Assembly: GCF_044704955.1 (NCBI RefSeq)
Contig: NC_092006.1
Span: 2,046,001-2,110,000, forward strand
Direction: 5' to 3'
From: Pristiophorus japonicus
Taxonomy: Eukaryota
Length of the DNA stretch: 64,000 nucleotides
This document shows positions 12,781-49,259 of this stretch, piece by piece. The notes below the pieces were generated by a model. That model searched no databases and was not told where the DNA came from. It was given only the letters and a program-made list of their open reading frames with translations. Numbering within the stretch: position 1 is the first letter of the stretch; every line of letters starts with the position of its first letter. A program made the position numbers and the translations under genes.

Positions 12781-12868
12781 ATGCTGAACGCACGGCTTGT
12801 GTTGTTTGCTCACCTGCTGCTCCTGAGCACTACAGAAAGGACCCCCAGGCTGAAATTTACACTCAAAG
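12781..12868 (+). CDS. Semaphorin-7-like exon 1 (signal peptide)
   Basis: MLNARLVLFAHLLLLSTTERTPRLKFTLK, with the semaphorin PRL motif; donor AAG|GTAC, phase 1. Confidence 0.8.
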
Positions 12869-15800
12869 GTACAATTGCAAAGTCGAATTTATAATGCCAG
12901 CTATTTTAGATTGTGTGCGCGTAAATTTTGGTAAAATCCCCGAGAACAATTTTATCTGCACTCGGAGCCATTGTTTGCAGAGCAACCTGTCTCCCTGGTC
13001 CTTCCTGCCTCTGCTGCATAACTAGACTGTTTTAAAAAGAATTAGGATGAATTCCCCCCACCCCCTCCTGTTTTGGGATCTATTGCCTGCCGCAATCTGC
13101 ATTGCACCAAATTGCAATCCAATGGGACCACATTGCATCTGACCCTCCCAGATGGAGAGAGTGGGTGGGGGGACATAAATCTCCTTTTATGTTTCATCGC
13201 TTCTGCACTTGGGGGATGGGGGGGGGGGCTCTGTTGATGCTGAGGAAATTGGAGAGGCAGAGGGGGGCTGTTTTTTGTTTTAAATTTGCAAAGATTTTTT
13301 TTGTTGCAGAAATGCATTTGAGGGTGCAGAGGGAGGGGGAAGATTGAGTGAAGTGCAGATCCCAGCTGACCATGTTTCATTCTCCCCCCCCACTCCCTCC
13401 CCACAGATCTGCCTCACCTGGAGTTTGGTTCCCTGGAGAAGTACACGGTGCAGTTCCACGACCAGAGGGCAGACACCCTCTACATCGGAGTGACAGGGGC
13501 CGTGCTGAGAGTGACTTTCACCCAATTCAACGCCTCGCACACATCGGTACTGACTGAGCATCGTGTTGTCGATGTGCACCTTGCACTGTGGGGGGGCGGC
13601 TAGGGGGGCGTGCATTGTGTACACGCCTGGCGGCGGCTGCTGCTGCAGGGGTCATGTTTATAAAGATGGCACATCGGAAGATCATGGACGCTGGGAGTCT
13701 TGCCATCTAAAGGTGGAAGATGTCCCTCACTAGGTGGGGAGAGCAGTGTTGAGTGCTTTCAACTGTTGACTACAGAGGGTGGGAGAAAGGGGAGGGGAGG
13801 AGAGTGGTGGGGTGGAGGTGGGAGAGGAGGGGAGTGGGGGAGAGTGGGGGGGGGAGTGGGGGAAAGGGGAGGAGGGGTGGGGTGGAGGAGGAGGAGGGGT
13901 GGGGTGGAGGAGGGAGGAGGGGTGGGGTGGAGGAGGGAGGAGGGGTGGGGTGGAGGAGGGAGGAGGGGTGGGGTGGAGGAGGAGGAGGGGTGGGGGGAGA
14001 GGAGGGGGGGCGGGGGGAGAGGAGTGGGGGCGGGGGGGAGAGGAGTGGGGGCAGGGGGGAGAGGAGTGGGGGCGGGGGGAGAGGAGTGGGGGCGGGGGGA
14101 GAGGAGTGGGGGCGGGGGGGAGAGGAGTGGGGGCGGGGGGAGAGGAGTGGGGCGGGGGGGAGAGGAGTGGGGCGGGGGGGAGAGGAGTGGGGAGAGAGGA
14201 GTGGGGAGAGAGGAGTGGGGAGAGAGGAGTGGGGGAGAGAGGAGTGGGGGAGAGAGGAGTGGGAGAGGAGTGGGGGAGAGAGGAGTGGGGAGAGAGGAGT
14301 GGGGGAGAGAGGAGTGGGGAGAGAGGAGTGGGGGAGAGAGGAGTGGGGGAGAGAGGAGTGGGGGAGGGGGGAGAGAGGAGTGGGGGAGGGGGGAGAGAGG
14401 AGTGGGGGAGGGGGGGAGAGAGGAGTGGGGGAGAGAGGAGTGGGGGGAGAGAGGAGTGGGGGGAGAGAGGAGTGGGGGAGGGGGGAGAGAGGAGTGGGGG
14501 AGGGGGGGAGAGAGGAGTGGGGGAGGGGGGAGAGAGGAGTGGGGGAGGGGGAGAGGAGTGGGGGAGGGGAGAGAGGAGTGGGGGAGGGGGAGAGGAGTGG
14601 GGAGGGGAGAGGGGTGGGGAGGGGAGAGGAGTGGGGGAGGGGGGAGGAGAGAGGAGTGGGGAGGGGGGAGAGGGAGTGGGGGAGGGGGAGAGAGGAGTGG
14701 GGAGGGGGGAGTGGGGGGGGGAGGGGAGAGGATGGGGGAGGGGGGAGAGGAGGAGTGGGGGGGGAGGGGGGAGTGGGGAGGGGGGAGTGGGGGGAGGGGG
14801 AGAGGAGGAGTGGGGGGAGGAGGAGTGGGGGGAGGGGGAGAGGAGGAGGGGGGNNNNNNNNNNNNNNNNNNNNNNNNNNNNNNNNNNNNNNNNNNNNNNN
14901 NNNNNNNNNNNNNNNNNNNNNNNNNNNNNNNNNNNNNNNNNNNNNNNNNNNNNNNNNNNNNNNNNNNNNNNNNNNNNNNNNNNNNNNNNNNNNNNNNNNN
15001 NNNNNNNNNNNNNNNNNNNNNNNNNNNNNNNNNNNNNNNNNNNNNNNNNNNNNCACGGGAAAGCTGCAAGAGCAAAGGGCCCCCAAGCCAGGTAAGGCCG
15101 AGCGAGCGATCGCATCTGCCGGCGACTGCTCGGGGTTGAAGAGTCAGATTCTGCGGTATCTGTGCCAAACAGGGTCAGTGTGTAGTACAGCCACGCCCGC
15201 CCACCGTATGTCAGTGAGGCACACCCCACCCTGAAGCACTGCTGTGGAGAATAGTGATCGACGGACTGAGCTTGATAGCTGGTTGGAGATTGTGACGCTG
15301 CTGTTGTGTGCGGTTGCAACAGATCAGTCGTGATTCGCTGTCTGCCTACACAGGAACAGGAGGAGGCCATTCAGCCCCTCCAGCCTGCTGCGCCATTTTG
15401 CTGAGACCACGGCTGATCTGTACCTCGGTTATTCTGTGCGATCCCGTGCACGCACTGATGTGAATCAGATGCCCTAACTGTGCATCGCTGCGAATTATCG
15501 ACAGCACGGGAACAGGCCATTCGGCCCATCGGCTCCGTGCCGGGGTCTATGCCCCCTCCCACCCCTCTCCATCTCAACCCATCAGCAACATAACCACCAT
15601 GCCACTGCACCCCCTCATGGTTAAGTCACTGCACCAGTAATCCCGAGGTCTGGACTAATAATCTGGAATTGAGAGTTCAAATCACGGCAGCTGGGGTATT
15701 TAAATTCAGTTAATTCAATAAATCTGGAATGAAAAAGCTAGGATCAGTGAACGGTGATCATGAAACTACCAGATTGTCGTAAAAACCCGTCGGGTTCACT

Positions 15801-18800
15801 GATGTCCTTCAGTGAGGGAAATCTGACGCCCTTACCCGGTCTGGCCGATATGTGTCTCCAGACCCACAGCATGTGGTCGACTCTTAACGGCCCTCTGGCC
15901 CAGCGAGACGCTCAGGTGTATCAAACCACTACAACAAAGTCAGCACTGTGGGAGCACCTTCACCACACGGACTGCAGCGGTTCAAGGCGGCGGCTCACCA
16001 CCACCTTCTCAAGGGGCAATTAGGGAGGGGCAATAAATGCCGGCCTTGCCAGCGACCCCCACATCTCGTTAACCAATTTAAAAATATACATCTCCTTGTA
16101 TTCCTTTCTCCCTTTTGTGGGGGATCAAGCATCAGTGGAATCTGCTTCAACTGTGCACAGTGCTCCGAGTGTGGTCTAACCCAGGTATATGGAGACCAGA
16201 ACTGTGCGCAGTGCTCCGAGTGTGGTCTAACCCAGGTATATGGAGACCAGAACTGTGCACAGTGCTCCGAGTGTGGTCTAACCCAGGTATATGGAGACCA
16301 GAACTGTGCGCAGAGCTGCAAGTGTGGTCTGACTAAGGGTCGATATAAATTTAACATTACCTCCTTGCGTTTGTAATCTTATCCTCTAGAAATGAACCTT
16401 AGTACAATGTTTACACTTCTTTATTGTATGTTATCTTGGGTGTCATTCGTGGCTTGGTGGGCAGCACTCTCACCTCTGAGTCAGAAGGTCATGGGTTCAA
16501 GTTCTACTCCAGGCCGATATTCCCAGTGTTGTACTGAGGGAGCGCCGCACAGTCGGAGGGGCGGTACTGAGGGAGCCCCGCACTGTCGGAGGGGCGGTAC
16601 TGAGGGAGCGCCGCACTGTCGGAGGGGCGGTACTGAGGGAGCGCCGCACTGTCAGAGGGTCAGTACTGAGGGAGCGCCGCACTGTCGGAGGGGCGGTACT
16701 GAGGGAGCCCCGCACTGTCGGAGGGTCAGTACTGAGGGAGCGCCGCACCGTCGGAGGGGCAGTACTGAAGGAGTGCCGCACAGTCGGAGGGGCAGTACTG
16801 AGGGAGTGCCGCACAGTCGGAGGGGCAGTACTGAGGGAGCCCCGCACTGTCGGAGGGGCGGTACTGAGGGAGCGCCGCACTGTCGGAGGGGCGGTGCTGA
16901 GGGAGCGCCGCACTGTCGGAGGGGCGGTACTGAGGGAGCCCCGCACAGTCGGAGGGGCGGTACTGAGGGAGCGCCGCAGAGTCGGAGGGGCGGTACTGAG
17001 GGAGCCCCGCACTGTCGGAGGGGCGGTACTGAGGGAGCGCCGCACAGTCGGAGGGGCGGTACTGAGGGAGCCCTGCACTGTCGGAGGGGCGGTACTGAGG
17101 GAGCCCTGCACTGTCGGAGGGGCGGTACTGAGGGAGCCCCGCACAATCGGAGGGGCGGTACTGAGGGAGCCCCGCACAGTCGGAGGAGCGGTACTGAGGG
17201 AGCCCCGCACAGTCGGAGGGGCAGTGCTGAGGGAGCCCCGCACTGTCGGAGAAGCGGTACTGAGGGAGCCCTGCACAGTCGGAGGGGCAGTACTGAGGGA
17301 GTGCCGCACTGTCGGAGGAGCGGTACTGAGGGAGCCCCGCACAGTCGGAGGGGCAGTACTGAGGGAGCCCCGCACAGTTGGAGGGGCAGTGCTGAGGGAG
17401 TGCCGCACTGTCGGAGGAGCGGTACTGAGGGAGCACCGCACTGTCGGAGGGGCAGTGCTGAGGGAGCCCCGCACAGTCGGAGGGGCAGTGCTGAGGGAGC
17501 CCCGCACAGTCGGAGGAGCGGTACTGAGGGAGCACCGCACTGTCGGAGGGGCAGTGCTGAGGGAGCCCCGCACAGTCGGAGGAGCGGTACTGAGGGAGCC
17601 CCGCACAGTCGGAGGGGCAGTACTGAGGGAGCGCCGCACTGTCGGAGGGGCAGTGCTGAGGGAGTGCCGCACTGTCGGAGGGGCAGTACTGAGGGAGCCC
17701 CGCACAGTCGGAGGGGCAGTACTGAGGGAGCGCCGCACTGTCGGAGGGGCAGTGCTGAGGGAGTGCCGCACTGTCGGAGGGGCGGTACTGAGGGAGCCTC
17801 TAACCAATTGATCACTAGGCAGCCTGTTCAAGTCCTAAGACACCCCGCGGGCACTGCCAGTGTGGACGGACTGGTTGTTATTAAGGCCGTCAGCCTTGAC
17901 TGTAACACTGTGCTTTCCACTCCCCGTTCACAGGACGACTGTGAGAACGTGATCACGGTGATAGAGCGGGTGAACAGCAGCACGGTCATGGTCTGCGGGA
18001 CCCACGCTGGAAGCCCCACCTGCTGGTTTCTGGTAAAAAAAAAAGCTTTTGTCAAACTTTGTCGCGTTAAAACGAACCGGTTCGATCAGTAGTGAGGCTC
18101 GGCCCCGGTTTACCGTGCAGAGTCACTGTCTGTCTGTGACTGCCCACAAAGCAAATCTACTGTTTCTGGGAACATTCCCGGATGAGGGACTGTGTCCCCG
18201 GAAGTCTGCGCGATTCTTGAATCTCGTCCCCGAATAGACTAGAGCCATAATCGCTGGAATATATACATTTCTTCGTCTTCTTAGACAGTCCCTCGAATCG
18301 AGGATGACTTGCAGGACTATTGTATGAGGAGGGATTGGGTCGACTGGGCCTGTATTCACCGGAGTTTAGAAGAATGAGAGGGGATCTCATTGAAAGGTAT
18401 AAAATTCTGACGGGGTTGGACAGACTGGATGTGGGGAGGATGTTTCCCGGGGCTGGGAAGTCTAGAACAAGGGGTCACAGTCTCAGGATACGGGGCAGGG
18501 AATTTAGGACTGAGATGAGGAGAAATGTTTTCACTCCGAGGGTGGTGAACCTGTGGAATTCTCTACCACAGAAGGCTGTGGAGGCCAAGTCACTGAATAT
18601 ATTTAAGAGGGAGATAGATAGATTTCGAGACACAAAAGGCATCCAGGGGTATTGAGAGAAAGCAGGAATATGGTGTTGGGATAGAGGATCAGCTATGATC
18701 ATATTGAATGGCGGTGCAGACTTGAAGGGCCGAATGGCCTACTACTGCACCTATTTTCTATGTTTCTATGCTTCCATGCCAAAAAGGGATGTGTTCAATG

Positions 18801-21800
18801 AGTTCACAGGTGTTTCAATGAAGGACCTAATATTCCGGGTCCCGAACTACATCCTGAAGGGTGGAAGGTGCCTGTGCTTGGATTTTTTTAACGTGGGTGT
18901 GGCCGTTGTACATCAGCCACCACAGGGGCTTGACAGAGCTAGGGCTTGGTCCACTGGCAAGGATTACCCAAGACAACTGGAGACCTGCTCTGCTGCACGG
19001 ACCTAGTGCGCACACATATCGCAGTGTGGGCTGGGCCCGTGCTGCCCCTGGGCCCTCGCCTCTGCTGGGCCCCGAGCTCACGCCTCCCCTGGGCCACGAT
19101 CACATCGCTCTGCAATCTCTCGCCGCTCCTGCTGTACCTGCCCACGCTCCCATCACCGACCTTTGCAGCCATCGCCCTCCTGCCCCAGGCTCGCTGCTCC
19201 CTGGAGTGCTATGTTCCTTTTTGCTGCCATCTTGCCTGCTCACTTAATATGTCTGTATACCTTCGCAGCTTCTATACCTCCTCCTCACAGCTTACTTTCC
19301 CACCTAGCTTTGTATCGTCAGCAAACTTGGATACATTACACTCGGCCCCTTCATGGCAATACATATCACATAGCGTTAGTCATAATCACAGTTTCAGGTC
19401 AGTGGACTGAAGTGTTAGGGGCTGAAATCCGGCGTCTTAGTGCCAACCGTTAGCGGCCCAGAACGGGCGCTAAGCCCCTCCCACCCGAGCGCCGCGTTGT
19501 CAGCGCCTTCCGCGAACTCCAGCGCCGGTTTAGTGTCGGCACTGTCCGTCTGAGCTAAGCTCGCGAGCCCCACCGACCCGGTGACGTCAGTGAATGTGCA
19601 ATGCACCCTGTCAGCGCTATGATTGCAAGCCCCGCCCCACCCAGTGATGTCACCGAGTGTGCAGCGCCCCGTCAGCGCTACGATCGCAAGCCCCGCCCCA
19701 CCCAGTGATGTCAGCGCTACGATCGCAAGCCCCGCCCACCCAGTGATGTCACCGAGTGTGCAACGCCCTGTCAGCGCTACGATCGCAAGCCCCGCCCCAC
19801 CCAGTGATGTCAGCGCTACGATCACAAGCCCCGCCCACCTAGTGATGTCACCGAGTGTGCAACACCCTGTCAGCGCTACAATCGCAAGCCCCGCCCCACC
19901 CAGTGATGTCACCGAGTGTGCAACGCCCCGTCAGCGCTATGATCGCAAGCCCCACCCCACCCAGTGATGTCACCGAGTGTGCAGCGCCCCGTCAGCGCTA
20001 CGATCGCAAGCCCCACCCCACCCAGTGATGTCACCGAGTGTGCAGCGCCCCGTCAGCGCTACGATCGCAAGCCCCGCCCCACCCAGTGATGTCAGTGCTA
20101 CGATCACAAGCCCCGCCCACCCAGTGATGTCACCGAGTGTGCAACACCCTGTCAGCGCTACGATCGCAAGCCCCGCCCCACCCAGTGATGTCACCGAGTG
20201 TGCAACGCCCTGTCAGCGCTACGATTGCAAGCCCCGCCCCACCCAGTGATGTCAGCGCTACGATCACAAGCCCCGCCCACCTAGTGATGTCACCGAGTGT
20301 GCAACACCCTGTCAGCGCTACGATCGCAAGCCCCGCCCCACCCAGTGATGTCACCGAGTGTGCAACGCCCTGTCAGCGCTACGATCGCAAGCCCCGCCCA
20401 CCCGGTGACCGTGAACTTGACTCCTTTGGCCTGCCGTAGCACACGCCGCCACTTCTGACGGGGGAAGCAGTCGGTACGTTGGTGATCCCGGGGCGGTGTC
20501 GTCTGGAGAGCAAGACGTGTGGTGACAGGTCATTTTTTTCCTATTTATTTGTGGAGGCAAATATTTGGGGAAGTGGGAGGTGTGGGCCACTGAAATATTT
20601 TTACCAAGAATTTTTTTTTCCTTCTTCAGGCGCTGGGATGCCGGCATCCAGTCGGCCAAATATTGACTAGGCCCCATGCCCTATCGCTCAGTTAGCGCCC
20701 GAAGAGGAGTGTGGATCGCTTCTCTTCGTGCTCCACTCTCCTCTTAGGGTCATACGACTGAATATCGCACTTTGAGGCGATAGTGCCTGGCGCTAAAGTT
20801 AGCAACCAGCCAGTGCAACAATCTCAATGCAGGAGGCACCAAATTTTGGCCCTTATTGTATTACAGGCAACTCTCGATTACCTGGGTCCCTCGGGGATTG
20901 GGCTATGCCGGGTAAACGATTTCTCCGTTAGAGCGTTTGACATTATAAAGTTAAAACCCGATGCCTTCTCGGCCAAAATTTTAAATCCCGTTACAATGGT
21001 TTCCCGTTGGATCCATGTGCGGATAATCGGGAGTTTGCCTGTATTTCTGAATACACTTCAAAAGTGTGCCGTCACATCTGCAGCAAGGCTATGCAGGTTT
21101 GATTTGCATTTGTAGTGTGTATGTGCTAAGAAATCTTGCCTGCCAATGCTGCACACTTTCCGCCCCGGTAACTGTGCTGCGCTCCCACCCTATGTGTCCG
21201 CGAATTCGGTTTGGGAATTGCGGCCATCCTTCTTTCACCTCCCTCTTTTTCAGCGGAATAACGGGACTCAGCTGGTGATGGACAAAGAGGGGCACGGGTT
21301 TGTGATAGACGGGAAAGAGATCTCGCCCCCATCACCGGCTCAACGTCCAGTCACCATCGCAGTAGGTCAGTATCTGAGCTCAAGAAGGTTTCAAGGCCTT
21401 TTTTGGCGGGTGTCGGTGCAGAGCAAGACAGAGCACTCAGCTCTCCCGTTCAATCTCGGGGCGGTGCTGAGTCAGCTGAGCTTAGCCAGGGTAGGGGTAG
21501 GTGCCCTGGCTCAGTGGGAATCATATTCACCTCTGGGTCAGAGGGTTGTGGATTCGAGTCCCAATCCAGAGACACGAACACAAATTCCAGACTGGCACTC
21601 CCAGTGCCAGTACTGAGGGAGCGCTGCACTGTCGGAGGGCCAGTACTGAGGGAGTGCCGCACTGTCGGAGGGGCAGTACTGAGGGAGCGCCACACTGTCG
21701 GAGGGGCAGTACTGACGGAGCGCCACACTGTCGGAGGGCCAGTACTGACGGAGCGCCACACTGTCGGAGGGCCAGTACTGAGGGAGCGCCACACTGTCGG

Positions 21801-24800
21801 AGGGCCAGTACTGAGGGAGCGCCACACTGTCGGAGGGCCAGTACTGAGGGAGCGCCACACTGTCGGAGGGCCAGTACTGAGGGAGCGCCACACTGTCGGA
21901 GGGGCGGTACTGAGGGAGGGCCACACTGTCAGAGGGGCAGTACTGAGGGAGGGCCGCACTGTCGGAGGGCCAGTAGTGAGGGAGCGCCGCACTGTCGGAG
22001 GGGCGTTGCGATTGTGCACAGTGGGATTGAATGGGAAGGGGTTTGGGTCCATTGGGATTGTGTACAGTAGGAGTGAATGGGAAGGGGTTTGTGTCCATTG
22101 GGATTGTGTACAGTGGGAGTGAATGGGAAGGGGTTTGTGTCCATTGGGATTGTGTACAGTGGGAGTGAATGGGAAGGGGTTTGTGTCCATTGGGATTGTG
22201 TACAGTGCTAGTGAATGGGAAGGGGTTTGGGTCCATTAGGATTGTGTACAGTGGGAGTGAATGGGAAGGGGTTTGGGTCCATTGGAATTGTGTACAGTGG
22301 GAGCAACTGCCCTGACCCCAGGCATGCCAACACAATCGGCTGCCTATTGACCATTACGAATGAATGGAATGACGGGGGGCAGTTGGACCAGAGAATTGTA
22401 ATTCACTTCTCTCCTCTCTTGCCCGCAGAGGGAAACCTGTACTCAGCAATGACCAGCAGCGGCACCATTCAGCGCAGTTACTGGAAGGGGAAGCACCTGA
22501 GGACCGAGGACAAATGGTTCCAGAGTAAGTATCGCTCAGCAGACTCAGACAGTCACCGGTGACACACCGTAGTATTACAGTGAGTGACTGGGCCGCCTGC
22601 ACTGACCTGCTGCCTTGTTCGCAACATTTTCCCAAAACAGAAGATTGAAAAATGGTTGTGAGGAGTACGATGTCAGCTGTGGCTCAGTGGGTAGCAATCT
22701 CGGCTCGGAGTCAGAATTCTGTGGGTTCAAGTCCCACTCCAGGGACTTGAGAACATGCGAGTGAGGACAAGGATGAAGCCATTCGGCCCCTCGAGCCTGC
22801 TCCGCCAGTCAATAAGATCACGGCTGATCTTCGACCTCAGCTCCACTTTCCTGCCCGATCCCCATCTCCCTCGATTCCCCTCGAGTCCAAAAATCTATCG
22901 ATCTCAGCCTTGAATATACTCAACGACTGAGCCTCCACAGCCCTCTGGGGCAGAGAATTCCAAAGATTCACCCCCCTCTGAGTGTAGAAATTCCTCCTCA
23001 TCTCAGTCCGAAATGGCCGAGCCCTTATCCCGAGACTGTGACCCCTGGTTCTAGACTCCCCAACCCGGGGGAAACATCCTCCCTGCATCTACCCTGTCAA
23101 TCCCCCTCAGAATCTTATACGTTTCAATGAGATCGCCTCTCATTCTTCTAAACTCCAGAGTAGAGAACTAGGGGGCATATAATCTTAGAATAAGGGGCTG
23201 CCCATTTAAAACTGAGATGAGGAGGAATTTCTTCTCTCAGAGGGTTGTAAATCTGTGGAATTCGCTGCCTCAGAGAGCTGTGGAGGCTGGGTCATTGAGT
23301 AAGTTTAAGACAGAGATGGACAGTTTCTTAACCGCTAAGGGAATAAGGCGTTAAGAGAAGCGGGCAGGGAAGTGGAGCTGAGTTCATGATCGAATCAGCC
23401 ATGATCGTATTGAATGGCGGAGCAGGCTCGAGGGGCCGTATGGCCTGCTCCTGCTCCTATTTCTTATGTAGAGGCCAAATCTACTCAATATGAGCGCAAA
23501 ATCCAGGCTGACGCTCCCAGTGCTCGTACTGAGGGAGCGCTGCACTGTCGCAGATGCTGTCTTTCGGATGAGATGTTAAAACGTGGCCTTCTCTGCTCTT
23601 TCAGAACACTGTCTCGTTAACCTGTCTTTTCAAATGCAGCCCAATCTGGTGTGTGTTGCACTTCTCTTTGTCAATATGTAATTGCCCAACATCAATCACC
23701 AGCCTCAACTGTGGTTCCAATAAGGTTCTTGTATCGTCCGTGTTAGATCCAACGTTTGTGGGGTCAGCTTGGATTAAACTCAAAGACAGCAGTAAGGATG
23801 AGATTTACTTTTTCTTCAGCGAGACCGAGGACAGTGCAGGTTTGGATGGGAAGCCCTACAGGTCCCGCATTGGGCGTGTGTGCAAGGTAAGGCCAACCTT
23901 ACTGTACTGAGTACTTAGCAATACTGAGGGAGTGCCGCAGTGTCAGAGGGGCGGGACTGAGGGAGCGCCGCAGTGTCGGAGGAGCGGGACTGAGGGAGCG
24001 CCGCACTGTCGGAGGGGCGGGACTGAGGGAGTGCCGCACTGTCGGAGGGGCGGGACTGAGGGAGCGCCGCACTGTCGGAGGGGCGGGACTGAGGGAGCGC
24101 CGCAGTGTCGGAGGGGCAGTACTGAGGGAGTGCCGCACTGTCGGAGGGGCAGTACTGAGGGAGTGCCGCACTGTCAGAGGGGCGGTACTGAGGGAGCGCC
24201 GCACTGTCGGAGGGGCAGTACTGAGGGAGCGCCGCACTGTCGGAGGGGCGGTACTGAGGGAGCGCCGCAGTGTCAGAGGGGCAGTACTGAGGGAGCGCCG
24301 CACTGTCGGAGGGGCGGGACTGCGGGAGCGCCGCACTGTCGGAGGGGCGGGACTGAGGGAGCGCCGCACTGTCGGAGGGGCGGGACTGAGGGAGCGCCGC
24401 ACTGTCGGAGGGGCCGTATGAGGGAGCGCCGCACTGTCAGAGGGGCCGTACTGAGGGAGCGCCGCACTGTCGGAGGGGCGGGACTGAGGGAGCGCCGCAG
24501 TGTCGGAGGGGCAGTACTGAGGGAGTGCCGCACTGTCAGAGGGGCGGTACTGAGGGAGCGCCGCACTGTCGGAGGGGCGGGACTGAGGGAGCGCCGCACT
24601 GCGCTGTCGGAGGGGCCGTACTGAGGGAGCCCCACATTGTCGGAGGAGCAGTACTGAGGGAGTGCTACACTGTCGGAGGTGCCATCTTTTGGATGAGACT
24701 TTAAACCGAGGTCCCAAAGATCCCACGGCCACTATTTGGAAGAAGAGCAGGGGGAGTTCTCCCCGGTGTCCTGGGGCCAATATTTATCCCTCAACCATCA

Positions 24801-27800: not shown

Positions 27801-30800
27801 CCTGAAAACCTCAATCAAATCACTCCGTAACCGTCTAAATTCCAGGGAATACAACCCAAGTTTGTGCAATTTCCCCTTGTAATTTAATCCTGGGGGAGGG
27901 AGAGAGGGAACCAGTTGGGGTTCCTGCTTCTCATGAGTAACCAGTGGTCCTTGCTGGAAATGAGGGGTTGGTATGTTAGCCTAGTGGTTTATGGTAGTGC
28001 ACTAATCAACCCAAAGGCCATCGCTTCCATAGAAACATAGAAAATAGGTGCAGTAGGCCATTCGGCCCTTCGAGCCTGCACCACCATTCAATATGATCAT
28101 GGCTGATCATTCCCTCCATACCCCTTGATCCCTTTAGCCGCAAGGGCCATATCGAACTCCCTTTTGAATATATCCAACGAATTGGCCTCAACAACTTTCT
28201 GCGGTAGAGAATTCCACAGGTTCACAATTCTCTGAGTGAAGAAGTTTCTCCTCATCTCGGTCCTAAATGGCTTACCCCTGATCCTTAGACTGTGACCCCT
28301 GGTTCTGGAACTCCCCAGCAACGGGAACATTCTTCCTGCATCTAACCTGTCCAATCCCATCAGAATTTTATATGCTTCTATGAGATCCCCTTTCATCCTT
28401 CTAAATTCCAGTGAGTATAAGCTCTAGTCAATCCAGTCTTTCTTCATATGTCAGTCCTGCCATCCCGGGAATCAGTCTGGTGAACCTTCGCTGCACTCCC
28501 TCAATAGCAAGAACGTCCTTCCTCAGATTAGGAGACCAAAACTGAACACAATATTCCAGGTGAGGCCTCACCAAGGCCCTGTACAACTGCAGTAAGACCT
28601 CCCTGCTCCTATACTCAAATCCCCTCGCTATGAAGGCCAACATACCATTTGCCATCTTCAGCGCCTGCTGTACCTGCATGCCAACTTTCAATGACTGATG
28701 TACCATGACACCCAGGTCTCGTTGCACCTCCCCTTTTCCTAATCTGTTACCATTCAGATAATAATCTGCCTTCTTGTTTTTGCCACCAAAGTGGATAACC
28801 TCACATTTATCCACATTATACTGCATCTGCCCATTGGCACAATCTCACTATGGCAAGTAGTAACAGTTCAGATCAATAGTAGAGACCCATTCAAGGGGTA
28901 TTTTCACCCACACGGGCCACCTATGTAAATAATTGATCCCCGGGAGTTGTGATCGAAATCGGAAAACGGGGAACAGGGATGCTCACGGCCTCGTACGTGT
29001 CATAAATGCTACTGATTGTCTTCCATTCCCACAGTGTACTACCGGCAACGTGCCGAAAAATGTGCTGTCGGCAATCAGGAACCACCCAGAGATTGAGGAC
29101 CCCATCTACCCCATCAAGAGGCACCCTCTCTATGTCATGAAACACAGTAGCTACACAAGGATCACTGCCGACAGAGTCAAGGGTGCCAGCCAGAACTTCT
29201 ACCAGGTCTTGTTCCTGGGCACAGGTTCGTTACGTGCTCTGTGGGTGGGGTATGTAACAGGGAGGTGGGGTATCGGCTCTATGGATGGGGTTTGTAACAG
29301 GGAGGTGGGGTATTGGCTCTGTGGGTGGGGTTTGTAACAGGGAGGTGGGGTATTGGCTCTGTGGGTGGGGTTTGTAACAGGGAGGTGGGGTATTGGCTCT
29401 GGGTGGGGTATGTAACAGGGAGGTGGGGTATCGGCTCTATGGGTGGGGTATGTAACAGGGAGGTGGGGTATTGGCTCTGGGTGAGATATGTAACAGGGAG
29501 GTGGGGTATTGGCTCTGAGTGGGGTATGTAACAGGGAGGTGGGGTATTGGCTCTGTGGGTGGGGTTTGTAACAGGGAGGTGGGGTATTGGCTCTGGGTGG
29601 GGTATGTAACAGGGAGGTGGGGTATTGGCTCTGGGTGGGGTATGTAACAGGGAGGTGGGGTATTGGCTCTGGATGGGGTATGTAACAGGGAGGTGGGGTA
29701 TTGGCTCTATGGGTGAGATATGTAACAGGGAGGTGGGGTATTGGCTCTGGGTGAGGTATGTAACAGGGAGGTGGGGTATTGGCTCTGAGTGGGGTATGTA
29801 ACAGGGAGGTGGGGTATTAGCTCTGTGGGTGAGATATGTAACAGGGAGGTGGGGTATTGGCTCTGAGTGGGGTAAGTAACAGGGAGGTAGGGTATTGGCT
29901 CTGTGTGTGGGGTATGTAACAGGGAGGTGGGGTATCGGCTCTGGGTGTGGGGTATGTAACAGGGAGGTGGGGTATTGGTTCTGTGGGTGGGGTATGTAAC
30001 AGGGAGATGGGGTATCGGCTCTGGGTGGGGTATGTAATAGGGAGGTGGGGTATTGGCTCTGGGTGGGGTATGTAACAGGGAGGTGGGGTATTGGCTCTGA
30101 GTGGGGTATGTAACAGGGAGGTGGGGTATTGGCTCTGTGGGTGGGGTTTGTAACAGGGAGGTGGGGTATTGGCTCTGGGTGGGGTATGTAACAGGGAGGT
30201 GGAGTATTGGCTCTGGGTGGGGTATGTAACAGGGAGATGGGGTATTGGCTCTATGGGTGAGATATGTAACAGGGAGGTGGGGTATTAGCTCTGTGGGTGA
30301 GATATGTAACAGGGAGGTGGGGTATTGGCTCTGAGTGGGGTAAGTAACAGGGAGGTAGGGTATTGGCTCTGTGTGTGGGGTATGTAACAGGGAGGTGGGG
30401 TATCGGCTCTGGGTGTGGGGTATGTAACAGGGAGGTGGGGTATTGGTTCTGTGGGTGGGGTATGTAACAGGGAGATGGGGTATCGGCTCTGGGTGGGGTA
30501 TGTAATAGGGAGGTGGGGTATTGGCTCTGGGTGGGGTATGTAACAGGGAGGTGGGGTATTGGCTCGGTGGGTGGGGTATGTAAAAGGGAGGTGGGGTATC
30601 GGCTCTGGGTGGGGTATGTAACAGGGAGGTGGGGTATTGGTTCTGTGGGTGGGGTATGTAACAAGGAGGTGGGGTATTGGTTCTGTGGGTGGGGTATGTA
30701 ACAAGGAGGTGGGGTATCGGCTCTGTGGGTGAGATATGTAACCGGGAGGTGGGGTATTGGCTCTGGGTGTAGGGTATGTAACAGGGAGGTGGGGTATCGG

Positions 30801-33800
30801 CTCTGGGTGTGGGGTATGTAACAGGGAGGTGGGGTATCGGCTCTAGGTGTGGGGTATGTAACAGGGAGGTGGGGTATCGGCTCTAGGTGTGGGGTATGTA
30901 ACAGGGAGGTGGGGTATTGGCTCTGGGTGAGATATGTAACCGGGAGGTCGGGTATTGGCTCTGGGTGGGGTATGTAACCGGGAGGTGGGCTATATGTTTT
31001 GCGGGTGTGTATGTTCTCAAGTGTTACTTCTTCTTGAAGGAAATGGGAAGATCCATAAAGTTCTGCACAGTAATGGCAAATCCTTCATCATTGCCGAGCT
31101 CAGCCCCTTTAAGGCCGAAGCTCCCATCTCGGTCATGACTCTGGACTCAAGCAAGGTAATATTCGGATAAGGGCGTCGCGGCCCCGGGGCTTCGGTGGGC
31201 GAGGTGGGACTGAGCCCCACACACGGGCCCGAGTTAGGGGGTGTTGAGTTAAGCCTCCTCGGCCGGGGAGGCCACAGGGGGAAGCTGCAACTGGCCTCGG
31301 GGTATCTGGGCTGGGGAAAGGACTCCTGCTGTTGGTTGCTATCCAGCGACTCCTTCAGGACAGTGAATGAGTGCATGGCAGGATCAGAAGAATTAGGAGC
31401 AGGAGTCGGCCATTCGGCCCCTCGAGCCTGCTCCGCCATTCAATGAGATCATGGCTGATCTTCTACCTCAACTCCACTTTCCCGCCCGATCCCCATATCC
31501 CTCGATTCCCTTAATAACCAACAATCTATCGATCTCAGCCTTGAATACACTCAACGACTAAGCCTCCACAGCCCTCTGGGGCAGAGAATTCCAAAGATTT
31601 ACCACCCTCTGAGTGAAGAAATTCCTCCTCATCTCAGTCCTCAATGGCCGACCCCTTATCCTGAGACTGTGTGACCCCTGGTTCTAGACTCCCCAGCCCG
31701 GGGGAAACACCCTCCCTGCATCTACCCTGTCAATCCCTGTAAGAATGTTGTATGTTTCAATGAGATCACCTCTCATTCTTCTAAACTCCAGAGAATATCG
31801 GCCCAGTCTGCTCAATCTCTCCTCATAGGACAATCCCCCCCATCCCAGGAATCAGTCTGGTGAACCTTTGTTGCACTCCCTTTGTGGCAAGTATATCCTT
31901 CCTTAGGTAAGGAGACTCAAACTGTGCACAATACTCCAGGTGTGGTCTCACCAGGGCCCGATATAATCGCAGTAAGGCGTCTTTACTCTTATACTCAAAT
32001 CTTCTTGTAATAAAGGCCAACAGGCCATTTGCTTTCTTAATTGCTTGCTGTACCTGCATGTTAACTTTCAGTGGTTCGTGTACAAGGACACCCAGGTCCC
32101 TCTGAACACCGACATTTCACAATCTCTCACCGTTTAAGATGTGATTGATCTCGAGGCTCAGCAGTGATGCCTCTCATGGCCAAACACCCTGCTGCCTCGC
32201 AGTCTAAATTCACTTGGGTGACCTACTGTAGGGGAGTCGCTGGAGTATATGGCCAGTGCAAGGAGGGATAGGGATAGGGAAATTGGAAAACAATCTCTTG
32301 TATTATTAAAATCAACATGTGTGTGTGTGTGTGTACCGCGCACACACTCCCTGTTGTCACAATTTGGGTCCTTTTCCGTCGACATTTAACACTGAAGTTC
32401 CCACCCTCCTGAGATTTCTGCTCTCCTCTAATCCTGGCCTCCTGCCCATCCCCCGATTTCCATCGCTCCACCATCGGTGGCCGTGCCTTTAGCTGCCTGG
32501 GCCCCAAGCTCCGGAACTCCCTCCCTAAACCTCTCCACCTCTTTCTCCTCCTTTAAGACGCTCCTTAAAACCGACCTCGCTCTTGGTCACCTGTCCGTAA
32601 TATCTCCCCGTGTGGCTCGGTGTCAAATTATGTTTGATAACGCGCCTTGGGACGTGTTACTACGTTAAAGAGACTGTATAAAAGCGAGTTATGATGTATC
32701 CGGTTAGAATGGAAAATTTGCATGTAAACAGTCGATGGTAACAATGTAGTTGCAGGATCTGAACACTAGAGGCACTATAGAGAGAGCTTTTGAAGTCTCT
32801 CTGCTGGGCAGGCCCTCCTTCCTGTACTTCACCCTCCTAGTTTGTCATGGATGAGCCTAAATAGAGCATGTCGGAAAGCTAGTTAGCCACCGGGGTATTG
32901 GAGCTTAACCCTATCCTGCCCTCACCTGGGACATTTCACGGTGTTAAAGGCGCTATATAAACGCAGGTTGTTGTTGCTGGTGCTGGCGACCTGGTACGCG
33001 GGACGCCAAGTGCTGACTCTGGACGGACCGATTCATTTCAGGGCCACCTGTTTGTGGGAACCTCGCGGGAGACCGTCCGACTACCACTGGCAGACTGCGA
33101 GGCCTACGGGAGCAGCTGTAAGCAGTGTGTTGCTGCCCGAGACCCCTACTGCGGATGGGACAGGGCCAGTGGGAAGTGCGTGGCCATCCCCTGGGACCTG
33201 AATGTCAGCAACAGGTAGGCCTCAATCAGCAGGCCCCGTTTGCAACGCGTTTTTGGCCAACCTCACCCGACTGCTTCCACTGCCCCCCTCGCCGTCTCAC
33301 GTTCAGCTGTCTCGGTTACTGTCTCGGTTATTTTTTCTATTGCTCCAACTGTTGAACATCCCTCATTATAATCGCTTAACCATCGCTGGCCTTAAGCTCC
33401 GGAATTCCCTCCCGAAACCTCTCGACCTCTCTCTCCTCCTTAAAACCACCTCTTTAAACAAGCCTTTGGCCACGTGCCTTTCTTCTTTTGTGGTTCGGTG
33501 TCAAATTTATCTGTTTGTCTGTAGCACTGCTGTGAAGCGCCTTGGGACGTTTTATTATGTTAAAGGCACTATATAAATAAGTTTTTATTATTATCGAAAA
33601 GAACCATCTTTCGTCCTGTTGCCTCATGATTGGACAAATCCCAGATCACAAATCTTTTAGCACTGGCAGTTAGAGAGCTATGTGCAGATTAACGGCATCA
33701 AGAACTTCACCTTTACTTCTGTCCGCAAAGCTCCATGAAGCCAACAAGAAGTCCATGGAGGTTAACGCTCGGACACTCCGGTTATACCGGCCCTGGGAGT

Positions 33801-36800
33801 GTTTGATGGGACAGTGTAGAGGGAGCTTTACACTCTGTATCTAAGCCCGTGCTGTACCTGCCCTGGGAGTGTTTGATGGGACAGTGTAGAGGGAGCTTTA
33901 CTCTGTATCTAACCCCCTGTACCTGCCCTGGGAGTGTTTGATGGGACAGTGTAGAGGGAGCTTTACTCTGTATCTAACCCCCTGTACCTGCCCTGGGAGT
34001 GTTTGATGGGACAGTATAGAGGGAGCTTTACACTCTGTATCTAAGCCCGTGCTGTACCTGCCCTGGGAGTGTTTGATGGGACAGTGTAGAGGGAGCTTTA
34101 CTCTGTATCTAACCCCCTGTACCTGCCCTGGGAGTGTTTGATGGGACAGTGTAGAGGGAGCTTTACTCTGTATCTAACCCCGTGCTGTACCTGCCCTGGG
34201 AGTGTTTGATGGGACAGTGTAGAGGGAGCTTTACTCTGTATCTAACCCCATGCTGTACCTGCCCTGGGAGTGTTTGATGGGACAGTGTAGAGGGAGCTTT
34301 ACTCTGTATCTAACCCCATGCTGTACCTGCCCTGGGAGTGTTTGATGGGACGGTGTAAAATATAAGAAATAGGAGCAGGAGTCGGCCATACGGCCCCTCG
34401 AGCCTGCTCCGCCATTTAATACGATCATGGCTGATCTAATCATGGACTCAGCTCCACTTCCCCGCCCGCTCCCCATAACCCATTATCGGTTAAGAAACTG
34501 TCTATTTCTGTCTTAAATTTATTCAATGACCCAGCTTCCACAGCTCTCTGAGGCAGCGAATTCCACAGATTTACAACCCTCAGAGAAGAAATTCCTCCTG
34601 ACCTCAGTTTTAAATGGGCGGCCCCTTATTCTAAGATCATGCTCTCGAGTTCTAGTCTCCCCCATCAGTGGAAACATCCTCTCTGCATCCACCTTGTCAA
34701 GCCCCCTTATAATCTTATACGCTTCGATAAGATCACCTCTCATTCTTCTGAATTCCAATGAGTAGAGGCCCAACCTACTCAACCTTTCCTCATAAGTCAA
34801 CCCCCTCATCCCCGAAATCAACCTTCTCTGAATTGCCTTCAAAGCAATTATATCCTTTCGTAAATATGGAAACCAAAACTGCACGCAGTATTCCAGGTGT
34901 GGCCTCACCAATACCCTGTATAACTGTAGCAAGACTTCCCTGCTTTTATACTCCATCCCCTTTGCAATAAAGGCCAAGATTCCATTGGCCTTCCTGATCA
35001 CTTGCTGTACCTGCATAATGTCCTTTTGTGTTTCATGCACAAGTACCCCCAGGTCCCGCTGTACTGCAGCACTTTACTCTGTATCTAACCCCGTGTTATC
35101 CCTGCCCTGGGAGTTATTCGGGGTGGGGGAGAGGGGAGCACACCTCAATGAGTACAGAACTTAACCCCACCTGAAAAAAACAAGACAAACTTCAATAATA
35201 TGCCAAATGTTCTGATTTAATTTGTTATCAGCGATGGCTGGTTACTCAATGTGCTGTGAAGATATCATCATCAGAGGCAGTCCCTCTGAATCGAAGAAGA
35301 CTTGCTTCCACTCTAACAATGAGTCCTTAGGTGGCTGAACAGTCCAATACGAGAGCCACAGTCCCTGTCACAGGTGGGACAGACAGTGGTTGAGGGAAGG
35401 GGAGGGTGGGACTGGTTTGCCGCACGCTCCTTCCGCTGCCTGCGCTTGGTTTCTGCATGCTCTCGGCGACGAGACTCCAATGGCTCAGCGCCCTCCCGGA
35501 TGCACTTCCTCCACTTAGGGCGGACTGGTCTTTGGCCAGGGACTCCCAGGTGTCGGTGGGGATGTTGCACTTTATCAGGGAGGCTTCGAGGGTGTCCTTG
35601 TAATGTTTCCTCTGCCCATTTTGGCTCGTTTGCCGTGAAGGAGTTCCGAGTAGAGCGCTTACTTTGGGAGTCTCGTGTCTGGGGCATGCGGACAATGTGG
35701 CCCGCCCAGCGGAGCTGATCGAGTGTGGTCAGTGCTTCGATGCTGGGGATGTTGGTCTGGTTGTATTGCAGGACTGAACAGGCTACAGGTCATTCACTGT
35801 GTGTTTTGTTCCCATTGCAGTACGATCGTCCAGAACGTTGAGCAGCTCAATGTCTCCATCTGTGACGGCTCCTCAGGTAACACCCGCCTCAGCTTTCGAC
35901 CCTGGCCCAGGAAACACGGCTTACATCAGCCCCGTGCCAACCGCTGGTGGTCTTTCCTTTTCCCAACTCGCTGTCTCTCCTGTTGGTGCCGACATTGGCT
36001 GCCATACAGTGCCACCCTCACCCGCCTGGCCATTTCTCAGGTGTGGGCGTTGGCGATGAGTGTCCACGGGCTATTCAGCTGTGAGGGGCATTACAACCAA
36101 GCACCAGCTGTCTTTACAGACCTGCCCTTTCCAGTCAGACAGCGATCTGCAGAGGGGCCCCGGCTGATTTATGTCATTCCCTAACCCATGGGGTCACAGG
36201 GCTCATTGCACAGAATCATAGCTTTACTCTGTATCTAACCCCGTGCTGTACCTGCCCTGGGAGTGTTTGATGGGACAGTGTAGAGGGAGCTTTACTCTGT
36301 ATCTAACCCCGTGCTGTACCTGCCCTGGGAGTGTTTGATGGGACAGTGTAGAGGGAGCTTTACTCTGTATCTAACCCCGTGCTGTACCTGCCCTGGGAGT
36401 GTTTGATGGGACAGTGTAGAGGGAGCTTTACTCTGTATCTAACCCCGTGCTGTACCTGCCCTGGGAGTGTTTGATGGGACAGTGTAGAGGGAACTTTACT
36501 CTGTATCTAACCCTGTGCTGTACCTGCCCTGGGAGTGTTTGATGGGGTTAGTGGGTGCAACAATTCTCCTCCCAATAAAGGTGGAATATTCTCGTTCGCA
36601 TATGCAGGAATGTTTGCCGTGCCTGGGTACTGATAGACGAACTGGTGGTTGGCGGTGAGGCCGGGGATAGGGAGCCCACTGGAATGTGTCGGAAAGAAGT
36701 TCAGTAACTTTCTCTGCTTTTCCCCCGGCCTCAGATGTCGTGGTGTTCAGCGAACGGCCCAAGGAGTTGAGCATTAACTCTGGCGCCTACCTGTACCTGC

Positions 36801-37069
36801 CGTGCCCAGTGAGGTCCTACCACGCCGTGTACACCTGGAGCTACAACCAGAAGGACCAGTTCGCCTGCACCATCAAGGATGGCTCGTGTCCGCTGATATT
36901 CAATGGGGAGGTCCCCATGAGCGAGGGGCTCTTCAAGTGCACCGCCAGCGAAGATGGACTGAAGGAGGAACTGGCCGTCTACAAGGTCACGTTGAACGAG
37001 GGGAGTGCGCCAATGCTGGAGCGCACGGCCCTCCTCCTCAGTCTGGCCGCCGTTTGCGCCCTGATGTAA
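12781..37069 (+). CDS. Semaphorin-7A-like GPI-anchored semaphorin, 14 coding exons: join(12781-12868,13407-13546,<15054-15091,17934-18032,21254-21365,22429-22524,23747-23886,25131-25309,25867-25978,29035-29224,31040-31155,33042-33214,35821-35876,36735-37069), ~630 aa
   Basis: All visible junctions are GT-AG with compatible phases and no stops. Sema motifs (DCENVIT, CGTHAGSPTCW, IYFFFSE, SRIGRVCK, WTTFLKARLIC), SEMA7A-like segments (DIDRAFKTSRLKGY, GKIHKV, YLPCPVRSYHAVYTW), PSI (CVAARDPYCGWD), Ig domain, hydrophobic C-terminus without cytoplasmic tail. No symbol given because it may be a paralog rather than the SEMA7A ortholog. Confidence 0.9.
13407..13546 (+). CDS. Semaphorin-7-like exon 2
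   Basis: CCACAG acceptor; DLPHLEFGSLEKYTVQFHDQRADTLYIGVTGAVLRVTFTQFNASHTS, resembling recalled SEMA7A DFGQTEPHTVLFHE...VWVGGRGKV. Confidence 0.85.
13780..14853 (+). repeat. G-rich polypurine low-complexity array (GGAGAGGAGTGGGG-like), followed by a 200-N gap (14854-15053)
   Basis: Direct reading. Confidence 0.95.
15054..15091 (+). CDS. Semaphorin-7-like exon 3 (5' part hidden in gap)
   Basis: RESCKSKGPPSQ then CAG|GTAAGG; matches the expected short Cys-containing exon, phase 0. Confidence 0.7.
15615..16070 (+). mobile_element. Unclassified SINE sharing its 3' tail with a CR1/L2-type LINE
   Basis: Head with GAGTTCAAATC (B-box-like), body TGATGTCCTTCAG..GGAAATCTG..CCAGACCCACAGCA, tail CTCACCACCACCTTCTC..GCAATAAATGCCGGCCTTGCCAGCGAC. 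Second copy at ~5713-6005(-); partner LINE ends ([30 protein letters not shown]) at ~25460-25760(-) and 55390-55795(+). Confidence 0.6.
16150..16335 (-). repeat. 51-bp tandem repeat derived from CR1 ORF2 (RPHxExCAQFWSP)
   Basis: Units start at 16150, 16201, 16252 and 16303. Confidence 0.85.
16440..17798 (+). repeat. DeuSINE head plus 33-bp minisatellite (~38 units)
   Basis: tRNA-like head followed by tandem 33-mers. Confidence 0.9.
17934..18032 (+). CDS. Semaphorin-7-like exon 4
   Basis: DDCENVITVIERVNSSTVMVCGTHAGSPTCWFL; AG/GT flanks. Confidence 0.92.
18268..19205 (-). mobile_element. Non-coding retroelement with an RTE-like 3' end, split by a CR1 (18313-18770)
   Basis: Ends GCAAGTCATCCTCGATTCGAGGGACTG plus an (AAG)n-like tail. 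Other copies at ~43545-44085(-), 52855-53113(+), 53305-53705(-), 54800-55105(+). Confidence 0.65.
19418..20852. mobile_element. Putative non-autonomous PIF/Harbinger-like DNA transposon with an internal 40/61-bp composite tandem repeat (~19580-20405)
   Basis: TTA|GGGGCTGAAAT ... AATTTTGGCCC|TTA: imperfect TIR (7/11) with matching TTA flanks. Confidence 0.5.
21254..21365 (+). CDS. Semaphorin-7-like exon 5
   Basis: RNNGTQLVMDKEGHGFVIDGKEISPPSPAQRPVTIAV; TTTTTCAG acceptor, GTCAGT donor. Confidence 0.8.
21503..22006 (+). repeat. DeuSINE head plus 33-bp minisatellite (~12 units)
   Basis: Head TGGCTCAGTGG..GGATTCGAGTCCC followed by the array. Confidence 0.88.
22010..22302 (+). repeat. 46-bp minisatellite
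   Basis: CCATTGGGATTGTGTACAGTGGGAGTGAATGGGAAGGGGTTTGTGT, ~6 copies. Confidence 0.92.
22429..22524 (+). CDS. Semaphorin-7-like exon 6
   Basis: EGNLYSAMTSSGTIQRSYWKGKHLRTEDKWFQ; GTAAGT donor. Confidence 0.88.
23747..23886 (+). CDS. Semaphorin-7-like exon 7
   Basis: NPTFVGSAWIKLKDSSKDEIYFFFSETEDSAGLDGKPYRSRIGRVCK; GTAAGG donor. Confidence 0.92.
23920..24990 (+). repeat. 33-bp minisatellite (~23 units) plus DeuSINE body and tail
   Basis: Array ~23922-24680 followed by the Deu-like domain and GGCGCTAT..AAATGCAA tail. Confidence 0.88.
25131..25309 (+). CDS. Semaphorin-7-like exon 8
   Basis: VDEGASKTAQESWTTFLKARLICGFPTELRLFNKIEDAFVLLVEDDPRGSIVYGIFSSLW; GTGAGC donor. Confidence 0.92.
25867..25978 (+). 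CDS. Semaphorin-7-like exon 9
   Basis: NSTAICAYSQVDIDRAFKTSRLKGYTGNLAGNQRPGT; GTAAGG donor. Confidence 0.92.
26147..26610 (+). repeat. 43-bp minisatellite derived from the CR1 3' end
   Basis: GGAACAGGAGGAGGCCCATTCAGCCCCTCGAGCCTGTTACACA, ~11 copies, running directly into CR1 UTR sequence CCGCCATTCAATGAGATCA. Confidence 0.9.
26630..27522 (+). mobile_element. CR1 LINE 3' fragment inserted into an older minus-strand CR1
   Basis: Degenerate ORF2 end (FDRVDTERMFPLVGKSITRGH...[15 protein letters not shown]); the host CR1 resumes at ~27523-27890. Confidence 0.8.
28028..28830 (-). mobile_element. CR1 LINE 3' fragment
   Basis: [17 protein letters not shown]...[15 protein letters not shown]... on the minus strand, with a TTTCTATG-type tail. 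Confidence 0.9.
29035..29224 (+). CDS. Semaphorin-7-like exon 10
   Basis: CTTGNVPKNVLSAIRNHPEIEDPIYPIKRHPLYVMKHSSYTRITADRVKGASQNFYQVLFLGT. Confidence 0.92.
29236..30990 (+). repeat. 38-41-bp G-rich minisatellite filling semaphorin intron 10
   Basis: GGGGTATGTAACAGGGAGGTGGGGTATTGGCTCT(GT)GGGT, ~44 copies. Confidence 0.95.
31040..31155 (+). CDS. Semaphorin-7-like exon 11
   Basis: GNGKIHKVLHSNGKSFIIAELSPFKAEAPISVMTLDSSK; GTAATA donor. Confidence 0.9.
31385..32135 (-). mobile_element. CR1 LINE 3' fragment
   Basis: QVQQAIKKANGLLAFI...[12 protein letters not shown] on the minus strand plus CR1 3' UTR. Confidence 0.88.
33042..33214 (+). CDS. Semaphorin-7-like exon 12 (PSI domain)
   Basis: GHLFVGTSRETVRLPLADCEAYGSSCKQCVAARDPYCGWDRASGKCVAIPWDLNVSN. 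Confidence 0.93.
33790..34357 (+). repeat. 65/68-bp minisatellite
   Basis: Same unit; a remnant resumes at ~35072-35113 after the CR1. Confidence 0.93.
34358..35072 (-). mobile_element. CR1 LINE 3' fragment inserted in a 65/68-bp array
   Basis: [47 protein letters not shown]; very similar subfamily copy at ~51235-51900(-). Confidence 0.88.
35821..35876 (+). CDS. Semaphorin-7-like exon 13
   Basis: STIVQNVEQLNVSICDGSS; TTGCAG acceptor, GTAACA donor; phases 2/1 fit the neighbouring exons. Confidence 0.85.
36220..36547 (+). repeat. 68-bp minisatellite
   Basis: Same unit, ~5 copies. Confidence 0.93.
36735..37069 (+). CDS. Semaphorin-7-like exon 14 (Ig domain and GPI-type signal)
   Basis: DVVVFSERPKELSINSGAYLYLPCPVRSYHAVYTW...GLFKCTASEDG...NEGSAPMLERTALLLSLAAVCALM*. 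Confidence 0.92.
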
Positions 37070-48938: not shown

Positions 48939-49035
48939 CCTCCCCCCCCATCCCATCAGCTTCCACCCCCCCTCCATCAGCAGTTTGCCTGCTCTGCACC
49001 CCGCCCCGCGCTGATTCTGCTCTGTGTTTGTGTAG

Positions 49036-49142
49036 AGGAGCACTGCGTGATGGTGGGCGACGATCAGATCACCATGGACATGAGGGTTCCTGGAGACACC
49101 GTGAAGTTTATCATCGGGCGGCAGGGCTCCACCATTAAACAG
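49036..49142 (+). CDS. TDRKH: TDRKH exon (KH1 start)
   Basis: [35 protein letters not shown]; TGTAG acceptor, GTGAGC donor. Confidence 0.93.
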
Positions 49143-49225
49143 GTGAGCCTGAGTACTCCGCGTCGGTCCCCTTGTACAACGTGCCACGCGCGCTCTCACT
49201 CTCTCGCTCGCGCACACGCTCGCGT

Positions 49226-49259
<34 letters not shown>

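Follow-up and report, generated by a model that had tools for sequence, protein, structure and literature searches.

Sema7B, an ancient paralog of SEMA7A in the shark Pristiophorus japonicus and most other jawed vertebrates

One review table lists a single class-7 semaphorin (PMC10084454). This protein, SEMA7A (CD108), is described as combining a Sema domain, a PSI domain, one immunoglobulin (Ig) domain and a glycosylphosphatidylinositol (GPI) anchor, dimerizing through its Sema and Ig domains and using Plexin-C1 and integrins that bind Arg-Gly-Asp (RGD) as receptors (PMC6016892). Plexins are reported to signal via a Rap GTPase-activating (Rap-GAP) domain, and the viral semaphorins, such as A3 of alcelaphine herpesvirus and those of avipox viruses, to derive from class 7 (PMC6374515). 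The window analyzed here, a stretch of 64,000 nucleotides (C32:2046001–2110000 of the Pristiophorus japonicus genome), carries on its + strand a 14-exon semaphorin gene at window positions 12781–37069, for which the working name Sema7B is used. A first-pass annotation had proposed that this gene is not the SEMA7A ortholog but a whole-genome-duplication paralog (ohnolog) of it. The gene is supported as an ancient SEMA7A paralog by its phylogenetic position; it likely arose in an early vertebrate genome duplication and is predicted to encode a GPI-anchored Sema-PSI-Ig ligand of a plexin.

Phylogeny and distribution of Sema7B

Maximum-likelihood trees were built with FastTree (158 and 73 rows) and IQ-TREE (41 rows under LG+G4; 31 rows under LG+C20 with posterior mean site frequencies, PMSF), the smaller sets being free of viral rows, frogs, long-branched teleost expansions and redundant taxa. 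The FastTree and IQ-TREE trees are concordant, and the LG+C20 PMSF topology is the same as that under LG+G4. Class 7 is monophyletic against classes 3 and 4, with support of 100/99 (41 rows) and 100/100 (31 rows). Within class 7, in the 41-row LG+G4 tree, Sema7B forms a clade of its own (100/100), separate from that of the bony-vertebrate SEMA7A (99/97).

The UniRef name of the protein, 'semaphorin-7A', implies a shark SEMA7A ortholog that has moved to another chromosome. Such a translocation would agree with the best PDB match, human SEMA7A, and with the lack of a class-7 gene in the 200 kb beside the CYP11A-like gene and the 200 kb beside ARID3 on C21, the LINGO1 chromosome of this genome. 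However, it is highly improbable. A tree constrained to group the shark Sema7B with bony SEMA7A is worse by 128.6 log units and is rejected by the approximately unbiased (AU) test (p=0.00104); the Sema7B clade includes genes of reptile, amphibian, coelacanth and fish species in which SEMA7A is present too; and the same genome carries a separate class-7 cluster on C21, so that Sema7B is not its only class-7 gene. A duplicate specific to the shark lineage is likewise rejected, since forcing Sema7B together with the C21 class-7 genes costs 106.1 log units (AU p=3.7e-6). The trees thus place the duplication that separated Sema7B from SEMA7A before the split between sharks and bony vertebrates.

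A search with the database protein of the gene (P0001) gave 804 matches at E<=1e-30, of which the best 120 were examined, 110 of them with organism names. All 120 score highest against the Sema7B group, and the named ones come from sharks, rays, coelacanth, bichir, sturgeon, gar, bowfin, teleosts, caecilians, axolotl, lizards, python, turtles and alligator. The zebrafish member is si:ch211-113g11.6 (LOC559008, NP_001119863). The first-pass annotation had the gene kept in cartilaginous fish and lost in mammals; its retention proves much wider, extending to coelacanth, ray-finned fish, caecilians, salamanders, lizards, snakes, turtles and crocodilians. A caecilian SEMA7A used as query drew another set of proteins, among them human, other mammalian and bird ones; it added 115 rows, every one of which has its highest score against the SEMA7A group. 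For at least 24 bony-vertebrate species, both sets contain a named protein.

No mammal, bird, frog or lungfish occurs among the 110 named relatives within the best 120 of the 804, and the loss of Sema7B is read from this absence. Among representatives at 50% identity, seven rows fall in the Sema7B group, four of them full-length and three fragmentary; the ones whose source was looked up come from shark and turtle. A divergent mammalian, bird or frog Sema7B should form a 50%-identity cluster of its own, although one could still sit inside a reptile cluster. Sema7B was likely lost in mammals and, less certainly, in birds and frogs; microchromosomes of the chicken chromosome 25 type are rich in GC and often under-assembled. 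Identity of the shark protein to its zebrafish, reptile, amphibian and coelacanth orthologs is 41–49%. For alligator it amounts to 47% with Sema7B and 30% with SEMA7A, and human SEMA7A gives 29.5%. In all seven matched taxon pairs Sema7B is more conserved than SEMA7A, by 7–15 points, and judged from these identities it evolves more slowly.

Gene structure, transcripts and predicted protein

The exons were placed via reading frames and splice signals. Exon 1 (12781..12868) opens with the ATG and encodes the hydrophobic N-terminus, a predicted signal peptide. Exon 2 (13407..13546; AG/GT) encodes Sema-domain sequence, and exon 3 is readable only in its 3' part (15056..15091), which has a GT donor and a 5' end within a run of N. 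Exons 4 (17934..18032), 5 (21254..21365) and 6 (22429..22524) are bounded by splice signals. The end of exon 7 (23747..23886) corresponds to the position of the human RGD motif, where Sema7B reads Lys-Val-Asp across the junction with exon 8. Exons 8 (25131..25309) and 9 (25867..25978), again delimited by splice signals, are followed by exons 10 (29035..29224) and 11 (31040..31155), both matched by Pfam Sema. Exon 12 (33042..33214) encodes the Pfam-matched PSI domain, exon 13 (35821..35876) is defined by its splice signals, and exon 14 (36735..37069) carries the Ig domain, the GPI-type tail and the stop, as read from the sequence and a predicted model.

GT is found at every one of the 13 donors and AG at 12 of the 13 acceptors, the remaining acceptor, that of exon 3, lying in the N run. 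The spliced chain of 1872 nt is in frame with a single terminal stop, and its product is exactly P0001 (623 aa, Pristiophorus japonicus). The first-pass description of a Sema-PSI-Ig gene with 14 exons and a GPI-type tail is borne out. Its further statement that the gene is intact stands for the reading frame but not for exon 3, whose 5' part is masked by N; close relatives are about 9–11 residues longer there, and the public protein also lacks these residues, consistent with an assembly gap. Long simple tandem arrays and fragments of long interspersed elements, presumably of CR1/L2 type, fill the introns and flanks and are the source of most long open reading frames of the window; the repeat-filled stretches are 9850–11470, 16480–17830, 21500–22350, 23900–24700, 29250–31000, 49500–50150, 59750–60480 and 60800–63580.

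Sequencing runs were compared as assembled contigs; the kind of run X11 is unrecorded, and run X1 is by guess RNA, from a related organism. In X11, exon 12 is matched, with 2 differences, by a contig of 510 nt that ends exactly at the donor at 33214. Its depth of 8.97 recurs on exon 11, and the 325 letters ahead of exon 12 agree with exons 10 and 11 preceded by 19 letters of exon 9. In X1, a 1891-nt contig matches exon 14 from contig position 1612, and the same depth (14.3) is found on exon 11. From these depths and offsets, we infer that both contigs represent spliced transcripts. Runs X2 and X12 gave chiefly repeat matches. In addition, full-length Sema7B orthologs from the zebrafish and Pleurodeles clusters lie on Logan contigs of 2.3–3.9 kb, which also point to spliced transcripts.

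The protein consists of a hydrophobic N-terminus, a Sema domain (Pfam E=2e-37), a PSI domain (E=1e-8), one Ig domain and a hydrophobic C-terminus without a cytoplasmic tail, and contains seven N-glycosylation sequons. P0001 further carries PF28354 (Ig_SEMA7A) among its precomputed Pfam domains. By sequence, the best PDB match is human SEMA7A (3NVQ, 279.5 bits), followed by SEMA3A (218.7 bits). In the fold search with a predicted model (predicted local distance difference test score 88), 3NVQ again ranks first, with SEMA4D narrowly behind. When exon 10 alone was searched against the PDB, SEMA4D and SEMA3A were matched and SEMA7A was unlisted; hence, single exons cannot classify the gene.

Across the 53 Sema7B rows, all 18 ectodomain cysteines are invariant; in the Ig domain, these are C536 and C581. 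The same 53 rows all end in small residues, a spacer and a hydrophobic stretch with no tail, with at most two charged residues among the last 17; we are confident in predicting from this pattern that the GPI is attached near N600–S603. The RGD motif is found in none of the 53 Sema7B rows and in 3 of the 16 SEMA7A-side rows, so it is not diagnostic outside mammals. The loop after the RGD position, which we take to be the main Plexin-C1 contact, shows no conservation between Sema7B and tetrapod SEMA7A, a point against Plexin-C1 as the receptor; it is likewise not conserved in fish SEMA7A.

Chromosomal setting and origin

Along the window, a LINGO coding exon, Sema7B and KH-KH-Tudor exons (about 49–61 kb) follow one another on the + strand, in the arrangement first described. 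The LINGO exon (487..2223, +) encodes a protein of 578 aa with leucine-rich repeats, an Ig domain and a transmembrane segment (Pfam LRR and I-set). Downstream, TDRKH (49030..63680, approximate, +, continuing beyond the window end) matches Pfam KH_1 three times and TUDOR, and no close duplicate of its Tudor exon exists elsewhere in the genome. Of the four LINGO genes that the genome contains, the one in the window scores 498 bits against the PDB LINGO1 vs 941 bits for the LINGO on C21, to which it is also closest (46.9% identity vs 44.4% and 42.3% for the others). Like the first-pass annotation, we take it to be LINGO4, by elimination and by the assumed human gene order; the name itself is presumptive. 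Farther upstream, within 120 kb of LINGO4, C32:1926000–2015000 holds an insulin-receptor-family gene (+), an NTRK gene (−) and a SEMA4-type gene (−). Beyond TDRKH, at C32:2127000–2166000, several exon-like frames on the − strand have no Pfam match and presumably resemble repeats of the otoancorin/mesothelin type.

The second class-7 locus lies at C21:80.2–80.55 Mb and consists of three recent copies of another GPI-type semaphorin in inverted arrangement (C21:80218000–80543000), one being a complete 14-exon gene (−), one having exons 2–12 and 14 found (+) and one being partial (−). Spliced, one copy encodes 637 residues; its 14 exon phases are those of Sema7B, to which the protein is 35% identical. 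In the 100 kb on each side of the cluster, no neighbor gene was recognized. With a sturgeon SEMA7A exon as query, the C21 copies score highest in the genome (71 and 68.7 bits), ahead of Sema7B (52.9 bits); the other 13 of the 16 matches belong to classes 4, 5 or 6, and no further class-7 exon is present among the 16. SEMA7A-side duplicates also occur elsewhere, with two genes in coelacanth and a second, expanded lineage in ray-finned fish, so that by its sequences the 'single-member' class 7 is one that has been repeatedly duplicated outside mammals.

C21 also carries LINGO1, STRA6, ARID3, two P450 loci and an insulin-receptor-family gene. The LINGO and insulin-receptor families, two of the three families tested, pair C32 with C21, and the class-7 genes of the two chromosomes are consistent with an ohnolog pair. 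The names CYP11A1, ARID3B, IGF1R, INSRR, NTRK1, SEMA4A and LINGO4 are ones that we assign on an assumed gene order, and the correspondences to human 1q21-23 and 15q, with RORC as the human neighbor of LINGO4, are likewise presumed.

Several observations weigh against an origin of Sema7B by genome duplication or against its pairing with the C21 genes. The NTRK paralogs lie on C1 and C17, not on C21, where the 15q-like chromosome would be expected to hold one. On C21, about 10 Mb separate the class-7 cluster from STRA6 and the CYP11A-like P450, while its distance to ARID3 is about 8 Mb. No semaphorin is found in C21:70.215–70.415 Mb or C21:71.99–72.19 Mb, the 200 kb beside the CYP11A-like P450 and the 200 kb beside ARID3, so that the gene-by-gene synteny of human 15q24 is not kept; between 70.415 and 71.99 Mb, C21 was covered by genome-wide searches only, three with a strict first look and one without. 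For RORC, no nuclear-receptor zinc finger was found in the 120 kb upstream or on C32 among 82 zf-C4 matches. Synteny was compared within the Pristiophorus japonicus genome only. In the trees, the C21 genes are sister to bony SEMA7A with weak support (80/47 with 41 rows, 81/80 with 31 rows), two other placements of them are not rejected by the AU test (p=0.10 and 0.37), and the root of class 7 is weak. Finally, no lamprey, hagfish or amphioxus row was identified, which leaves the duplication undated from below.

The first part of these observations would suit an old paralog that arose when a single gene or a small segment was duplicated ahead of the jawed-vertebrate radiation. The local order on C21 is unlike human 15q24, RORC and the NTRK paralog are not where a doubled block would have them, and class 7 duplicates readily, as the three C21 copies, the two coelacanth genes and the ray-finned expansions illustrate. 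Against this stand the pairing of C32 and C21 by the LINGO and insulin-receptor families, the closeness of the window LINGO to that of C21, and a timing that fits doubling. A small duplication is accordingly rather unlikely, and genome duplication is strongly favored over another early duplication. The proposal of a whole-genome-duplication ohnolog thus holds as to the age before the shark/bony-vertebrate split and the two paired families, and is qualified by the NTRK position on C17 and the offset of 8–10 Mb.

The phylogenetic points would suit a jawed-vertebrate ancestor with three class-7 lineages, in which the C21 genes are a third paralog and sharks have either lost the true SEMA7A or have it in unassembled sequence; Sema7B would remain distinct in that case. 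The alternative placements left by the AU test, the long stem of the C21 genes and their distance of 8–10 Mb from the expected neighbors all agree with this. However, the best trees join the C21 genes to bony SEMA7A as its sister group, the position expected from the species tree, and the genes sit on the LINGO1/STRA6 chromosome; moreover, no bony-vertebrate member of the C21 type occurs among 381 proteins classed, nor any further class-7 exon among the 16 genome matches. Three lineages are therefore improbable, if less so than a small duplication. With two lineages preferred, the separate SEMA7A that had been sought beside CYP11A1, UBL7, ISLR and LINGO1 would be the C21 cluster, which lies on the expected chromosome but 8–10 Mb from STRA6, the CYP11A-like P450 and ARID3.

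Other semaphorin and assembly features were also seen. An intronless semaphorin with stops and a frameshift at C10:59407820–59409242, with copies on C1361 and C3837, is a processed pseudogene. It shares about 61% identity with a class-4-type protein, and the gene with introns for that protein is seemingly at C2:11.07 Mb. At C9:126408821–126409078, SEMA4D-like exons 7 and 8 are fused without an intron and contain a stop, probably a second processed pseudogene. An insulin-receptor exon is duplicated at C18:7606081 and 8132699 with identical score, 0.5 Mb apart, and the unplaced C2796 and C2893 repeat C32 and C1 exons; both are likely uncollapsed haplotypes in the assembly.

Proposed function and comparison with known semaphorins

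By analogy with SEMA7A, Sema7B would form dimers, and the GPI-anchored dimer would signal to neighboring cells through a plexin, whose Rap-GAP activity may alter adhesion and the cytoskeleton in migrating cells or axons. The RGD-dependent route through beta-1 integrin would be missing. With the loss of Sema7B, mammals may lack an arm of GPI-semaphorin signaling, as the first-pass annotation suggested. Binding to some plexin is, by the same analogy, to be expected with good confidence. Plexin-C1 is only slightly favored as the partner, and the different loop after the RGD position makes another plexin possible. More tentatively, the class may have divided its labor: of two genes in the jawed-vertebrate ancestor, the slow Sema7B would have kept a conserved developmental or neural signal via its own receptor surface, and SEMA7A would have evolved fast under immune and viral-mimic pressure, gaining RGD-integrin signaling in mammals as Sema7B vanished (probably independently in birds and frogs). 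If so, studies of 'sema7a' in zebrafish, axolotl and lizard would miss or mislabel half of the pathway.

In public annotation, Sema7B and its orthologs are named semaphorin-7A, semaphorin-7A-like, Semaphorin-1A or si:ch211-113g11.6. Full-text literature searches returned no description of the paralog, although supplements, subscription journals, Ensembl or ZFIN may record the pair and the protein itself is already in public annotation, mislabeled. The only 'sema7b' in the literature searched, one row of a breast-cancer table, reads as a slip for SEMA7A. The main text of a zebrafish sema7a paper contains none of the terms 'paralog', 'ch211' and 'duplicat' (PMC11318972). Sema7B is apparently an unnamed second class-7 semaphorin that, as judged from its sequence relatives, most jawed vertebrates keep. 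A second and more conserved class-7 gene, often labeled SEMA7A in databases and present in zebrafish and axolotl among others, bears on orthology calls, on fish and reptile RNA-seq reporting 'sema7a' and on possible redundancy in zebrafish sema7a mutants. Since ohnologs lost in mammals are common, the surprise is moderate. The gene, which can be tested directly in zebrafish, also raises the question of which receptor class 7 used ancestrally, ahead of the RGD motif of mammals.

Compared with SEMA7A (3NVQ), Sema7B shares the signal peptide, the Sema, PSI and Ig domains, the GPI-type tail and the cysteine pattern, and the two form sister clades. However, Sema7B is only about 30% identical to human SEMA7A, belongs to a clade of its own and co-occurs with SEMA7A in the same species. 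Sema7B lies on the LINGO4/TDRKH chromosome (C32), whereas the SEMA7A markers LINGO1, STRA6, the CYP11A-like gene and ARID3 lie on C21. Furthermore, it has no RGD, carries another loop at the presumed Plexin-C1 contact and evolves more slowly. The zebrafish si:ch211-113g11.6 and the reptile, amphibian and coelacanth 'semaphorin-7A-like' models fall in the same 100/100 clade and are the Sema7B orthologs; they carry no gene name, and the literature searches returned no paper on them.

In the case of class 4, SEMA4D (1OLZ) has the same Sema-PSI-Ig fold, with a TM-score equal to that of SEMA7A and a raw identity of about 30%. Class-4 semaphorins possess a transmembrane helix and a cytoplasmic tail, whereas Sema7B terminates in its hydrophobic tail and falls within class 7 with support of 100/99. 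As for the viral semaphorins, both viral rows tested nest, by FastTree, within the amniote SEMA7A clade and not with Sema7B.

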